From NCBI RefSeq assembly GCF_013122565.1, contig NZ_CP053258.1: a stretch of 64,000 nt of DNA; one strand, given 5' to 3'. This stretch comes from Escherichia coli (GTDB lineage Bacteria > Pseudomonadota > Gammaproteobacteria > Enterobacterales > Enterobacteriaceae). The position numbers were made by a program, and so were the translations under genes. The notes beneath the pieces are model-generated. The model was not told the origin of the DNA and made no database searches. It saw only the letters and a list, made by a program, of their open reading frames with translations. Below, in pieces: positions 53,380-62,489 of the stretch (position 1 is the stretch's first letter; every line of letters begins with the position of its first letter).

Positions 53380-54762
53380 ATGGAGATGTATTTTAAAAGA
53401 ATGAAAGATGAGTGGACCGGACTTGTCGAGCAGGCAGATCCGCCCATTCGTGCTAAAGCCGCGGAAATTGCCGTTGCGCATGCTCATTATCTGAGTATCG
53501 AGTTTTATCGAATTGTCCGCATCGACCCGCATGCCGAAGAATTCTTGAGTAATGAACAAGTTGAGCGGCAGTTGAAAAGTGCGATGGAACGCTGGATTAT
53601 TAACGTGCTTTCCGCCCAGGTTGACGATGTCGAAAGGCTAATACAAATCCAGCATACCGTCGCGGAAGTGCATGCCCGCATAGGAATTCCGGTAGAAATT
53701 GTCGAGATGGGGTTTCGGGTGCTGAAAAAAATCCTCTATCCGGTAATCTTCTCTTCGGATTATTCCGCCGCAGAAAAACTTCAGGTCTACCATTTCTCTA
53801 TTAACAGTATTGATATCGCGATGGAAGTGATGACCCGCGCGTTTACCTTTAGTGACAGTAGTGCCTCAAAGGAAGATGAAAACTATCGTATCTTCTCGTT
53901 ACTGGAAAATGCCGAAGAAGAAAAAGAACGGCAAATAGCCTCAATACTTTCATGGGAAATAGATATTATCTATAAAGTCCTGCTGGATTCTGATTTAGGC
54001 AGTAGTTTGCCTTTAAGCCAGGCTGATTTTGGCCTGTGGTTTAACCATAAAGGTCGACATTATTTTAGCGGCATTGCCGAAGTGGGCCATATCTCCCGTC
54101 TGATTCAGGATTTCGACGGTATTTTCAATCAAACCATGCGTAACACCAGGAATTTGAATAACAGAAGTCTGCGGGTGAAATTTTTATTACAGATAAGAAA
54201 TACTGTATCGCAAATTATTACCTTGCTGCGTGAATTGTTTGAAGAAGTATCGCGCCACGAAGTCGGTATGGATGTACTGACGAAATTACTTAACCGCCGT
54301 TTCCTGCCGACTATCTTCAAACGCGAAATTGCCCATGCCAACCGGACCGGTACACCGCTGTCAGTGCTGATTATTGACGTTGATAAATTTAAAGAGATCA
54401 ACGATACGTGGGGCCATAACACTGGCGATGAAATTCTGCGTAAAGTCTCTCAGGCCTTTTATGACAACGTCCGCAGTAGTGATTATGTTTTCCGCTACGG
54501 GGGCGATGAATTTATCATTGTTTTGACTGAAGCTTCTGAAAACGAAACGTTACGTACCGCAGAACGTATTCGCAGTCGGGTGGAGAAAACCAAACTGAAA
54601 GCCGCAAACGGCGAGGATATTGCCCTCTCACTTTCCATCGGTGCCGCCATGTTTAATGGTCATCCTGACTATGAGCGCCTCATTCAAATAGCCGATGAAG
54701 CTCTGTATATCGCCAAAAGACGAGGTAGAAACCGTGTTGAACTCTGGAAAGCCAGTCTTTAG
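53380..54762 (+). CDS. dosC: DosC, globin-coupled diguanylate cyclase
   Basis: 460-aa ORF with a GGDEF motif (RYGGDEF). Confidence 0.93.
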   Translation: MEMYFKRMKDEWTGLVEQADPPIRAKAAEIAVAHAHYLSIEFYRIVRIDPHAEEFLSNEQVERQLKSAMERWIINVLSAQVDDVERLIQIQHTVAEVHARIGIPVEIVEMGFRVLKKILYPVIFSSDYSAAEKLQVYHFSINSIDIAMEVMTRAFTFSDSSASKEDENYRIFSLLENAEEEKERQIASILSWEIDIIYKVLLDSDLGSSLPLSQADFGLWFNHKGRHYFSGIAEVGHISRLIQDFDGIFNQTMRNTRNLNNRSLRVKFLLQIRNTVSQIITLLRELFEEVSRHEVGMDVLTKLLNRRFLPTIFKREIAHANRTGTPLSVLIIDVDKFKEINDTWGHNTGDEILRKVSQAFYDNVRSSDYVFRYGGDEFIIVLTEASENETLRTAERIRSRVEKTKLKAANGEDIALSLSIGAAMFNGHPDYERLIQIADEALYIAKRRGRNRVELWKASL

Positions 54763-54786
54763 ATGCGCCAGGATGCAGAGGTAATC

Positions 54787-60613: not shown

Positions 60614-61506
60614 TGCTAAGCGAGGAAACGTCCGCCGTACGCCCAGCAAAACAAACGCGATTTAACGGTGCAAAACTGGTATGGATGCTGAAAGGCAGTC
60701 CGCTCACCGTGACCGGCGCAGTCATCATTGTATTAATGCTATTGATGATGATTTTTTCACCGTGGCTGGCGACGCATGATCCCAACGCCATTGATTTAAC
60801 CGCCCGCCTTTTACCGCCTTCTGCGGCGCACTGGTTTGGCACCGATGAAGTGGGACGCGATCTGTTCAGCCGCGTACTGGTCGGCAGTCAGCAATCAATT
60901 CTCGCCGGATTAGTGGTGGTCGCCATTGCGGGTATGATTGGTTCGCTACTCGGATGTCTATCCGGTTTGCTTGGCGGACGCGCAGACGCCATCATCATGC
61001 GCATCATGGACATTATGCTGTCGATTCCTTCGTTGGTACTGACAATGGCACTGGCTGCCGCTCTCGGGCCGAGTTTATTTAACGCCATGCTGGCGATTGC
61101 AATTGTGCGAATTCCCTTTTATGTGCGCCTGGCGCGGGGGCAAGCATTAGTTGTACGCCAGTATACCTATGTTCAGGCGGCGAAAACCTTTGGTGCGTCG
61201 CGTTGGCATCTGATCAGCTGGCATATTTTACGTAACTCCCTGCCGCCGCTGATCGTGCAGGCATCGCTGGATATCGGTAGCGCGATTTTAATGGCCGCCA
61301 CGTTGGGATTTATTGGCCTGGGTGCTCAACAACCGAGTGCTGAATGGGGCGCGATGGTAGCGAATGGTCGCAACTATGTACTCGATCAGTGGTGGTATTG
61401 CGCATTTCCGGGGGCAGCGATTTTGCTTACCGCCGTCGGGTTTAATCTCTTTGGTGATGGTATTCGCGATCTGCTTGACCCGAAAGCAGGAGAAAAGCAG
61501 TCATGA
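60610..61506 (+). CDS. ddpC: DdpC, ABC transporter permease
   Basis: 298-aa membrane ORF; 4-nt overlap with ddpB. Confidence 0.93.
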   Translation: MMLSEETSAVRPAKQTRFNGAKLVWMLKGSPLTVTGAVIIVLMLLMMIFSPWLATHDPNAIDLTARLLPPSAAHWFGTDEVGRDLFSRVLVGSQQSILAGLVVVAIAGMIGSLLGCLSGLLGGRADAIIMRIMDIMLSIPSLVLTMALAAALGPSLFNAMLAIAIVRIPFYVRLARGQALVVRQYTYVQAAKTFGASRWHLISWHILRNSLPPLIVQASLDIGSAILMAATLGFIGLGAQQPSAEWGAMVANGRNYVLDQWWYCAFPGAAILLTAVGFNLFGDGIRDLLDPKAGEKQS

Positions 61507-62489
61507 CCCAACCCGTTCTGGACATCCAACAACTGCATTTGAGTTTCCCCGGTTTTAACGGTGATGTTCACGCGCTCAACAATGTGTCCTTGCAGATTAA
61601 CCGCGGTGAAATTGTCGGTCTGGTGGGAGAATCCGGCTCAGGTAAATCAGTCACCGCAATGCTGATTATGCGTCTGCTACCGACGGGCAGTTATTGCGTA
61701 CATCGGGGGCAGATTTCCCTGCTGGGAGAAGATGTTCTTAACGCGCGGGAAAAACAGCTTCGTCAGTGGCGCGGCGCACGAGTGGCGATGATCTTTCAGG
61801 AACCGATGACCGCCCTCAATCCAACACGTCGAATAGGTCTTCAGATGATGGACGTGATCCGCCATCATCAACCAATAAGTCGTCGGGAAGCCAAAGCTAA
61901 AGCGATTGCCTTGCTGGAAGAGATGCAAATCCCGGATGCCGTGGAAGTTATGTCGCGCTATCCGTTTGAGCTTTCAGGTGGTATGCGCCAGCGGGTAATG
62001 ATTGCATTGGCATTCTCCTGCGAGCCGCAATTGATTATTGCCGACGAACCGACGACGGCGCTGGACGTCACAGTACAGTTGCAGGTACTGCGTTTGCTTA
62101 AACATAAAGCCCGCGCCAGTGGAACTGCGGTACTGTTCATCAGCCATGATATGGCCGTGGTGTCGCAACTGTGCGATAGCGTTTACGTGATGTATGCCGG
62201 AAGCGTAATTGAAAGCGGCGGGACGGCAGACGTTATCCATCATCCCCGGCATCCGTATACCATTGGTTTGCTGCAATGCGCACCAGAACATGGAGTACCA
62301 CGCCAGCCATTACCCGCCATTCCAGGGACGGTACCAAACCTCACCCATTTGCCTGACGGCTGCGCTTTTCGCGATCGTTGCTATGCGGCAGGTGCACAGT
62401 GTGAAAACGTCCCGGCGCTGACAGCGTGTGGTGACAACAACCAGCGCTGCGCCTGTTGGTATCCGCAGCAGGAGGTCATAAGTGTCTGA
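61503..62489 (+). CDS. ddpD: DdpD, ABC transporter ATP-binding protein
   Basis: 328-aa ORF with Walker A (GESGSGKS); 4-nt overlap with ddpC. Confidence 0.93.
   Translation: MTQPVLDIQQLHLSFPGFNGDVHALNNVSLQINRGEIVGLVGESGSGKSVTAMLIMRLLPTGSYCVHRGQISLLGEDVLNAREKQLRQWRGARVAMIFQEPMTALNPTRRIGLQMMDVIRHHQPISRREAKAKAIALLEEMQIPDAVEVMSRYPFELSGGMRQRVMIALAFSCEPQLIIADEPTTALDVTVQLQVLRLLKHKARASGTAVLFISHDMAVVSQLCDSVYVMYAGSVIESGGTADVIHHPRHPYTIGLLQCAPEHGVPRQPLPAIPGTVPNLTHLPDGCAFRDRCYAAGAQCENVPALTACGDNNQRCACWYPQQEVISV

Follow-up and report, generated by a model that had tools for sequence, protein, structure and literature searches.

Here we ask whether the short gaps and overlaps between the genes of two operons of Escherichia coli, dosC-dosP and ddpXABCDF, point to translational coupling. 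Both lie in a 64,000-nucleotide stretch of contig NZ_CP053258.1 (assembly GCF_013122565.1), which was analyzed as a whole and is called the window below. A preliminary description, made from the sequence, had proposed that the tight junctions of dosCP and ddpBCDF suggest coupling, within a span (54760-62489) that runs from the T of the dosC stop codon to the final A of the ddpD stop codon. Both transcription units of this region are ordinary ones with an existing annotation in E. coli; their short gaps and overlaps are real and conserved, yet they are the standard, already known layout of two well-annotated operons. Considered jointly, the junctions are probably explained by two modes of translation, with dosP relying mainly on its own initiation and ddpB, ddpC, ddpD and ddpF chained by reinitiation, which at ddpA/ddpB would be of low efficiency.

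As textbook operon junctions in annotated genes, these features are of little importance in themselves. The comparative evidence confirms the start codons of ddpB, ddpC, ddpD, ddpF and dosP, and sets the reinitiation-competent spacing of the junctions from ddpA/ddpB to ddpD/ddpF apart from that of dosC/dosP. This separation could help in engineering the expression of these operons or in quantifying it.

Gene content and boundaries of the two operons

The genes and flanking elements of the region are as follows.

53300..53368, + strand: yddY-like upstream ORF before dosC, 22 codons here versus 13 in K-12
53380..54762, + strand: dosC (dgcO), 460-aa globin-coupled diguanylate cyclase, stop codon TAG at 54760-54762
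54763..54786, + strand: dosC-dosP spacer of 24 nt, containing an in-frame ATG (54763-65) and the dosP Shine-Dalgarno (SD) sequence
54787..57186, + strand: dosP (pdeO), 799-aa haem-PAS c-di-GMP phosphodiesterase, sharing its reading frame with dosC
57199..57224, + strand: GC hairpin resembling a terminator, with a T-run after it, 12 nt past the dosP stop codon
57384..57400, + strand: putative sigma-54-type promoter motif TGGCAT-N5-CTGCAT upstream of ddpX, read from the sequence
57444..58025, + strand: ddpX, D-Ala-D-Ala dipeptidase, 193 aa
58039..59589, + strand: ddpA, substrate-binding protein, 516 aa
59591..60613, + strand: ddpB, permease, 340 aa
60610..61506, + strand: ddpC, permease, 298 aa
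61503..62489, + strand: ddpD, ATP-binding subunit, 328 aa
62482..63408, + strand: ddpF, ATP-binding subunit, 308 aa

Both gene sets have the composition of the known operons. A globin-coupled GGDEF cyclase gene is followed on the same strand by a haem-PAS GGDEF-EAL phosphodiesterase gene, and a VanX-type dipeptidase gene by genes for the binding protein, two permeases and two ATPases of a PepT-family ABC transporter. The DosP protein scored 1644 bits against the NCBIfam equivalog model NF008467 (cutoff 857), with residues 1-799 aligning to profile positions 1-800, and the equivalog models of DdpX (NF007557; 333 bits, cutoff 176) and DdpC (NF007376; 619.5 bits, cutoff 434) were matched as well. 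Compared with their PGAP-annotated counterparts in E. coli strain A16, DosC and DosP show 99.8% identity.

The dosC and dosP genes are reported to be co-transcribed and their proteins to form a complex (PMC11543664; PMC8846402). The sequence of the window is compatible with co-transcription, as the spacer is only 24 nt long and the sole terminator-like hairpin with a T-run sits after dosP, where it is the probable end of the dosCP transcript. The yddY-like ORF ends with a TAA codon (53366-68) located 11 nt upstream of the dosC ATG. The ddpX promoter is reported to be RpoN/NtrC-dependent (PMC8743547). The Rfam search detected no RNA family between positions 52500 and 64000, and the scan for sigma-70 promoters was uninformative, giving fewer hits than in shuffled controls.

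The dosC/dosP junction and the dosP start codon

The coordinates given earlier for dosP, with a start 24 nt after the dosC stop codon and its own ribosome-binding site (RBS), proved exact. The SD sequence AGAGGT occupies positions 54777-54782, placing GAGG 5 nt ahead of the ATG at 54787, and its duplex with the anti-SD sequence has a predicted energy of -7.1 kcal/mol. The figure of 24 nt hinges on the chosen start, because another in-frame ATG, at 54763, directly adjoins the dosC stop codon (TAGATG, 0-nt gap). If the latter were the true start, dosP would encode an 807-aa protein with the N-terminus MRQDAEVI, and the junction would be a true reinitiation site. Structural work by crystallography and cryo-EM (1V9Y, 9BGV) used a cloned 807-aa form, and of 5,426 complete E. 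coli genomes, 4,938 match the 101-nt sequence of the dosC/dosP junction with an identity of at least 99%.

However, ATG 54763 is not preceded by an SD sequence (-3.3 kcal/mol at a 13-nt spacing), and it is not conserved: Escherichia strain E69 (L003) has ATT in its place and L018 has ATA, in-frame stop codons occur within the spacer in Citrobacter, and in the cryptic clades one of the eight extra codons is altered non-synonymously (CAG to CCG). The 799-aa start is used by UniProt, RefSeq and the NCBIfam DosP model, and the structure paper labels the eight extra residues as 'historical numbering' (PMC11543664). The evidence favours 54787 as the dosP start, leaving it very improbable that the true start is ATG 54763, which was rejected as the main start for having neither an SD sequence nor conservation. 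The widely used 807-residue numbering of DosP begins, that is, at a non-conserved ATG adjoining the dosC stop codon. A further and weaker possibility is that the TAG-ATG abutment and the shared reading frame yield a minor 807-aa DosP isoform or, in amber-suppressor strains, a DosC-DosP fusion made by read-through; a search of the accessible literature gave no description of a DosC::DosP hybrid allele.

A search for DosP in 100,044 species-representative genomes returned only seven loci, and more distant relatives were gathered by protein searches and contig look-ups. The dosC/dosP spacer measures 24, 24, 26, 26 and 32 nt in the relatives compared, with an overlap in none of them, and its ...gcagaggtaa... 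element is kept while the rest is variable. The dosP RBS is predicted to be open, with a probability of being unpaired of 0.58 versus 0.45 for the surrounding sequence. Termination-reinitiation has been assigned to unidirectional gene pairs with stop-to-start distances from -8 to +6 nt (Huber et al. 2023), and both dosC/dosP (+24 nt) and ddpX/ddpA (+13 nt) fall outside this range. Reinitiation falls sharply with distance (PMC10666635; review PMC12548453) and in published data is mostly gone at 20-38 nt, which makes independent initiation of dosP more likely.

One could nevertheless suppose that all the listed junctions are coupled, including dosC/dosP, such that ribosomes leaving dosC reach the dosP start by scanning across 24 nt and reinitiate there, which would bring the amounts of the two interacting enzymes into balance. 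The reported co-transcription of the genes and the joint complex of their products (PMC11543664; PMC8846402) agree with this supposition, as do the shortness of the spacer, too small to hold a promoter or a terminator, and the scanning of 70S ribosomes reported in vitro for distances of +39 and +73 nt (review PMC12548453). We consider it unlikely, since the spacer keeps a length of 24-32 nt in all relatives and never shrinks to an overlap, its conserved element is an SD sequence fit for de novo initiation, and no structure is predicted to sequester the RBS. The same observations leave the dosC/dosP part of the earlier coupling proposal unsupported. Most likely, dosP is initiated de novo at 54787 by free 30S subunits, using its own conserved SD sequence within an RBS that is not predicted to be sequestered; ribosomes finishing dosC would give this initiation a minor boost at most. 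Some coupling across +24 nt is possible; results at +14 nt in the literature are gene-pair specific.

Junctions of the ddp genes and their conservation

Four consecutive junctions of the ddp operon have distances within the -8 to +6 nt range (+1, -4, -4 and -8 nt), compared with 24% of unidirectional gene pairs in E. coli (PMC10666635).

59587..59593, + strand: ddpA/ddpB junction, TAA-c-GTG, +1 nt, with a GTG start and a nearly absent SD sequence (-2.2 kcal/mol)
60599..60613, + strand: ddpB/ddpC junction, SD sequence GGAGGT (60599-604) within ddpB, ATGA at 60610-13, overlap -4
61488..61506, + strand: ddpC/ddpD junction, SD sequence AGGAG (61488-92) with a 10-nt spacer, ATGA at 61503-06, overlap -4
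62470..62489, + strand: ddpD/ddpF junction, SD sequence AGGAGGT (62470-76), GTG at 62482-84, ddpD stop codon TGA at 62487-89

The two 4-nt overlaps reported earlier were confirmed to the base, with the ddpB stop codon TGA (60611-13) overlapping the ddpC ATG (60610-12) and the ddpC stop codon TGA (61504-06) overlapping the ddpD ATG (61503-05). So was the 8-nt overlap of ddpD and ddpF (GTGTCTGA), in which the GTG of ddpF starts 8 nt inside ddpD. A second ATG at 60613 would turn the ddpB/ddpC geometry into TGATG (-1). Reassignment of start codons, which might have removed the overlaps, finds no place here: the annotated starts of ddpB, ddpC, ddpD and ddpF are each the first possible start past the upstream in-frame stop codon, ddpF has no alternative start within 40 codons, and the N-termini are conserved. 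The remark that such junctions are expected for these operons is borne out by the PGAP annotation of A16 and the RefSeq annotation of K-12 MG1655, which show the same geometry. Two further junctions were absent from the preliminary description, namely ddpX/ddpA, where ddpA has an SD sequence AGGA (58028-31), and ddpA/ddpB, the tightest of the non-overlapping junctions.

The ddp geometry was compared in six genera, Escherichia and Citrobacter, Pantoea, Brenneria, Tatumella and Kosakonia. Spacing is -8 at ddpD/ddpF in six of six, alternates between -4 and -1 at ddpC/ddpD, and is -4 at ddpB/ddpC in five of six (+3 in the remaining one). The start positions, the N-terminal residues from residue 1 and the upstream GGAG are likewise kept, with ddpF starting with GTG in the window and with ATG at the same position in the relatives. 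This geometry persists though DdpC of the other genera is only 76-86% identical to that of the window.

Translational coupling at ddpB/ddpC, ddpC/ddpD and ddpD/ddpF is likely, judging from their geometry, because the junction spacing is conserved and published reporter studies mostly found such pairs to be coupled, by termination-reinitiation. Among E. coli gene pairs, a spacing of -4 is the commonest, followed by -1 and -8 (PMC10666635), and coupling was observed in four of five tested -4 pairs, being strong in three, with bioBF as the exception (PMC6728339). Given how common the -4/-8 class is and how most tested -4 pairs behave, this part of the earlier proposal was a reasonable one. After terminating on ddpB, ddpC or ddpD, a ribosome would most likely reinitiate on the adjacent start codon, by termination-reinitiation or short-range scanning, and through the resulting chain the production of subunits B, C, D and F of a single transporter would be linked. 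We infer this hand-over of ribosomes from the coordinates, start codons, SD sequences and conserved geometry established above; a literature search found no experiment on the dosCP or ddp junctions.

Alternatively, the overlaps may reflect genome compaction and drift of stop codons in an AT-rich stop/ATG context, with no functional coupling anywhere and each ddp gene using its own SD sequence. Good SD sequences are indeed present at ddpC (-10.6 kcal/mol), ddpF (-11.0 kcal/mol) and ddpD (-7.4 kcal/mol), and those of ddpC and ddpF are so strong that both genes could initiate independently. The -4 pair bioBF is not coupled (PMC6728339), and a single substitution shifts ddpC/ddpD between -4 and -1, showing that the precise overlap can vary. 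Yet the spacing has stayed reinitiation-competent in all six genera even though the sequence at the junctions and next to them has turned over, the majority of tested -4 pairs are coupled (PMC6728339), and the Escherichia ddpB gene, which starts with GTG and has essentially no SD sequence, is hard to square with efficient independent initiation. A complete lack of coupling therefore appears improbable.

Three mechanisms of coupling in general, namely 30S scanning, 70S scanning and RNA unfolding, are still under debate (PMC12548453). Unfolding by upstream translation would call for a downstream RBS sequestered by structure in the upstream coding region, and predicted folding gave no sign of this at any junction: the probability of being unpaired over positions -15 to +5 is near or above the local mean for ddpB (0.63), dosP, ddpC (0.52) and ddpF (0.44), and only for ddpD (0.36) is it slightly below. 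Upon nitrogen depletion, ddpX mRNA rises 104.5-fold and ddpF mRNA 2.2-fold (PMC8743547); with mRNA levels so far from uniform along the operon, the ratios of Ddp proteins are not fixed by translation alone.

Initiation at ddpB would most likely also depend on reinitiation, at a low efficiency that would hold the amount of permease under that of the binding protein. The ddpA-ddpB spacer of Citrobacter, Pantoea, Brenneria, Tatumella and Kosakonia is 44-63 nt long and contains a GC-rich hairpin and an SD sequence, followed by an ATG start. We tentatively suggest, as a possibility that is still doubtful, that an ancestral spacer was deleted in Escherichia, where DdpB and, via the chain of overlaps, DdpC, DdpD and DdpF would now obligatorily need ribosomes terminating on ddpA. 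If true, the deletion would be a natural switch from independent initiation to reinitiation only.

Comparison with known systems

The dosCP (dgcO-pdeO, b1490-b1489) and ddpXABCDF (b1488-b1483) operons of E. coli K-12 have the same genes in the same order, and their junction distances (+24, +13, +1, -4, -4 and -8) equal those of the window. The proteins of the window are 98.7-99.8% identical to those annotated in strain A16, its DNA matches the best complete genome at 98.7% identity, and the differences from K-12, among them the length of the yddY ORF, are only allelic.

Among the paralogous K-12 operons, nikABCDE, which belongs to the same PepT-type ABC transporter family, is fully chained (-1/-4/-1/-4), including the junction between the binding protein and permease genes, so that its A and B genes, like those of ddp, have no spacer between them; unlike ddp, it has nickel as substrate, no -8 junction and no dipeptidase gene. 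The K-12 dppABCDF and oppABCDF operons have the subunit order of ddp, and their ATPase genes (D/F) overlap by 4 nt, but they differ in the spacers of +307 and +85 nt that follow the binding protein gene. Their permease junctions, at +9 to +14 nt with intergenic SD sequences, belong to the '+10 class', for which either independent initiation or coupling through long-range interactions has been put forward (PMC10666635).

In their geometry, the ddp junctions resemble bioBF, which has the layout of the coupled -4 pairs yet is uncoupled, and also hyfHI, astDB, ydbH-ynbE and menDH (Huber et al. 2019, 2023), with -4/-1 overlaps and SD sequences inside the upstream gene. For these four pairs coupling by termination-reinitiation was demonstrated by experiment, whereas ddp is likened to them by its geometry.

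Genes and start codons of the dos/ddp region

The ORF list of the window places dosC, dosP, ddpX, ddpA, ddpB, ddpC, ddpD and ddpF on the plus strand at 53380-63408, and NCBIfam equivalog models confirm the identities of DosP (1644 bits, cutoff 857; residues 1-799 on profile positions 1-800), DdpX (333 bits, cutoff 176) and DdpC (619.5 bits, cutoff 434). The 10-kb query 54000-64000 is matched by 5,411 of 5,426 complete E. coli genomes (top identity 98.7%), whose annotation uses the same dos/ddp gene names; strain A16 (PGAP) and K-12 MG1655 (RefSeq) have the same genes and junction distances as the window. 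The first 25 kb of the window (autotransporter, lsrK, tcuA, hipA region) is covered to at least 80% in only 4 of the 5,426 genomes, which, together with the 98.7% top identity, means that the window comes either from a lineage with little representation or from a region of mosaic origin. Sequence reading gave the following stop-to-start distances (minus, overlap), all on the plus strand.

dosC/dosP, +24 nt: TAG 54760-54762, spacer 54763-54786 with AGAGGT at 54777-54782, ATG 54787
ddpX/ddpA, +13 nt
ddpA/ddpB, +1 nt: TAA c GTG, 59587-59593
ddpB/ddpC, -4 nt: ATGA, 60610-60613
ddpC/ddpD, -4 nt: ATGA, 61503-61506
ddpD/ddpF, -8 nt: GTG 62482, TGA 62487-62489

The preliminary description, an observation that is already known for dosCP and ddp, had the 24-, -4-, -4- and -8-nt distances right, and its limits, 54760 and 62489, belong to the stop codons of dosC and ddpD; the ddpX/ddpA and ddpA/ddpB junctions were absent from it. 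The annotated starts of ddpB, ddpC, ddpD and ddpF are the earliest ATG, GTG or TTG past the upstream in-frame stop. No alternative start was found within 40 codons for ddpF, and the sole one near that of ddpC is the codon immediately after it (ATGATG); its use would shift the distance from -4 to -1. In orthologous operons of Citrobacter braakii, Pantoea stewartii, Brenneria goodwinii, Tatumella ptyseos and Kosakonia oryzae (DdpC 76-86% identical to that of the window), the start positions coincide with those of the window, conservation of the N-termini begins at residue 1, and each start has a GGAG motif ahead of it. The ddpF start is GTG in E. coli and ATG, at the same position, in cryptic Escherichia clades and all five other genera, the pattern expected of a genuine start. 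ORF and cross-genus comparison thus uphold these starts, and the reassignment named beforehand as a threat to the overlaps was not borne out.

Initiation at dosP and variation at dosCP

The dosC/dosP junction had been described as tight and suggestive of coupling, a reading that did not hold. In E. coli, in four genomes from cryptic-clade or related Escherichia and in one metagenomic relative the spacer measures 24 nt; Citrobacter amalonaticus and C. rodentium have 26 nt, and a relative with a DosP that shares 64% identity with that of the window has 32 nt. None of the relatives compared has an overlap. Its first ~10 nt vary, and the conserved part is the Shine-Dalgarno (SD) segment gcagaggtaa, with the dosP ribosome-binding site predicted to be open (P(unpaired) 0.58). 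In vivo, reinitiation falls by 80-100% at +38 nt, and according to the same authors ~20 nt almost abolishes coupling (PMC10666635). Spacing, conserved SD, predicted open site and published distance effect together argue for an ordinary SD between two cistrons, at which initiation is mainly independent.

It is very improbable that dosP is mainly started at ATG 54763, giving an 807-aa protein. A mechanical ORF of that length does open there, right after the dosC stop (TAGATG), and the eight extra residues, MRQDAEVI, are present in PDB 1V9Y, 9BGV and 9CDR, but that codon lacks an SD (-3.3 kcal/mol at a spacing of 13 nt) and is ATT in Escherichia strain E69 and ATA in another relative. In Citrobacter the spacer holds in-frame stops, and the start used by the NCBIfam DosP model is the 799-aa one. 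According to a 2024 structure paper, the eight residues are kept for "historical numbering" with respect to UniProt P76129 (PMC11543664). The 807-residue numbering, as in 1V9Y and 9BGV, is the field's residue numbering, and conservation of ATG 54763 is limited to most Escherichia.

In the window, dosC and dosP share one reading frame (53380-57186), with TAG and eight sense codons between them, and amber read-through (e.g. in supE laboratory strains) would yield a 1,268-aa DosC-DosP fusion; with the 26-nt Citrobacter spacer the two frames differ. Two further features concern dosC.

53300-53368, plus strand: yddY, small ORF upstream of dosC
L021:3001-5772 (locus with a deletion allele): hybrid dosC::dosP, ~1,035-bp deletion near window 54688-55720

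One extra T in a T-run accounts for the 22 codons of yddY in the window versus 13 in K-12 and A16, and its TAA overlaps the dosC SD, 11 nt ahead of the dosC ATG; cryptic-clade Escherichia have only 3 codons, with the AGGAG SD and ATG retained. The natural in-frame deletion encodes a 923-aa hybrid, DosC(1-436)::DosP(313-799), in which neither PAS domain nor the intergenic junction is left. Its fusion junction occurs in 25 of the 5,426 complete genomes and the intact junction in 5,314; no description of the hybrid was found in the literature searched. An IS1 lies at the yddY start position in L021. In Escherichia albertii (L007:8962-11044), a truncated dosC (356-aa ORF) joined to a fragmented 3' remnant of dosP points to pseudogenisation, and no ddp genes lie downstream.

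The ddpA/ddpB junction and the region upstream of ddpX

All Escherichia examined, and only Escherichia, have TAAcGTG at ddpA/ddpB (+1 nt, no SD). The five other genera (L013-L017, ~3920-3985) have spacers of 44-63 nt, each with its own SD and ATG and a GC-rich hairpin that differs in each (MFE -17.1 to -22.5 kcal/mol). The Escherichia junction looks like a precise spacer deletion. In these loci ddpX is also preceded, at a distance of 14-18 nt, by a gene for an RpiR-type (HTH_6) regulator (~870-1760). Escherichia lacks this gene and has in its place dosP, an intergenic region of 257 nt and a motif of the sigma-54 type.

57199-57224: terminator-like hairpin and T-run just after dosP
57384-57400: sigma-54-type motif TGGCAT-N5-CTGCAT, 44 nt ahead of the ddpX ATG

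TGCAC repeats upstream of the motif (~57296-57325) resemble NtrC sites.

Conservation of the ddp overlaps and translational coupling

The ddpD/ddpF distance is -8 (ATGnCTGA) in six of six genera, and that of ddpB/ddpC is -4 in five of six, with +3 in Pantoea. For ddpC/ddpD, Escherichia and Citrobacter show -4 and the remaining genera -1 (TGATG or TAATG); a single C-to-G change turned -4 into -1 in one cryptic-clade Escherichia. Among unidirectional gene pairs of E. coli K-12, -4 is the most frequent spacing, with -1 and then -8 next; of the 2,987 pairs, 707 (24%) lie within -8 to +6 nt, a class typical of genes for subunits of one complex (PMC10666635). Four successive ddp junctions of this class, kept across genera, exceed chance expectation.

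Coupling in ddpBCDF, the other part of the preliminary reading, is plausible from the junction sequences (-4/-4/-8): of five native E. coli -4 pairs in reporter assays, four were coupled, three strongly, and bioBF was not (PMC6728339). We found no data on coupling at these ddp junctions. Computed SD/anti-SD duplexes are -10.6 kcal/mol for ddpC, -11.0 for ddpF, -7.4 for ddpD (10-nt spacer) and only -2.2 for ddpB. Current models invoke ribosome scanning and reinitiation, or RNA unfolding (PMC12548453); since none of the ddp ribosome-binding sites was sequestered in the predicted folds, coupling, if it occurs, would more likely proceed by reinitiation. Upon nitrogen depletion, ddpX mRNA rises 104.5-fold but ddpF mRNA only 2.2-fold (PMC8743547), which implies that transcript polarity also shapes expression along the operon. 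Among the paralogous operons of K-12, junctions are -1/-4/-1/-4 in nikABCDE, +307/+9/+10/-4 in dppABCDF and +85/+14/+11/-4 in oppABCDF.
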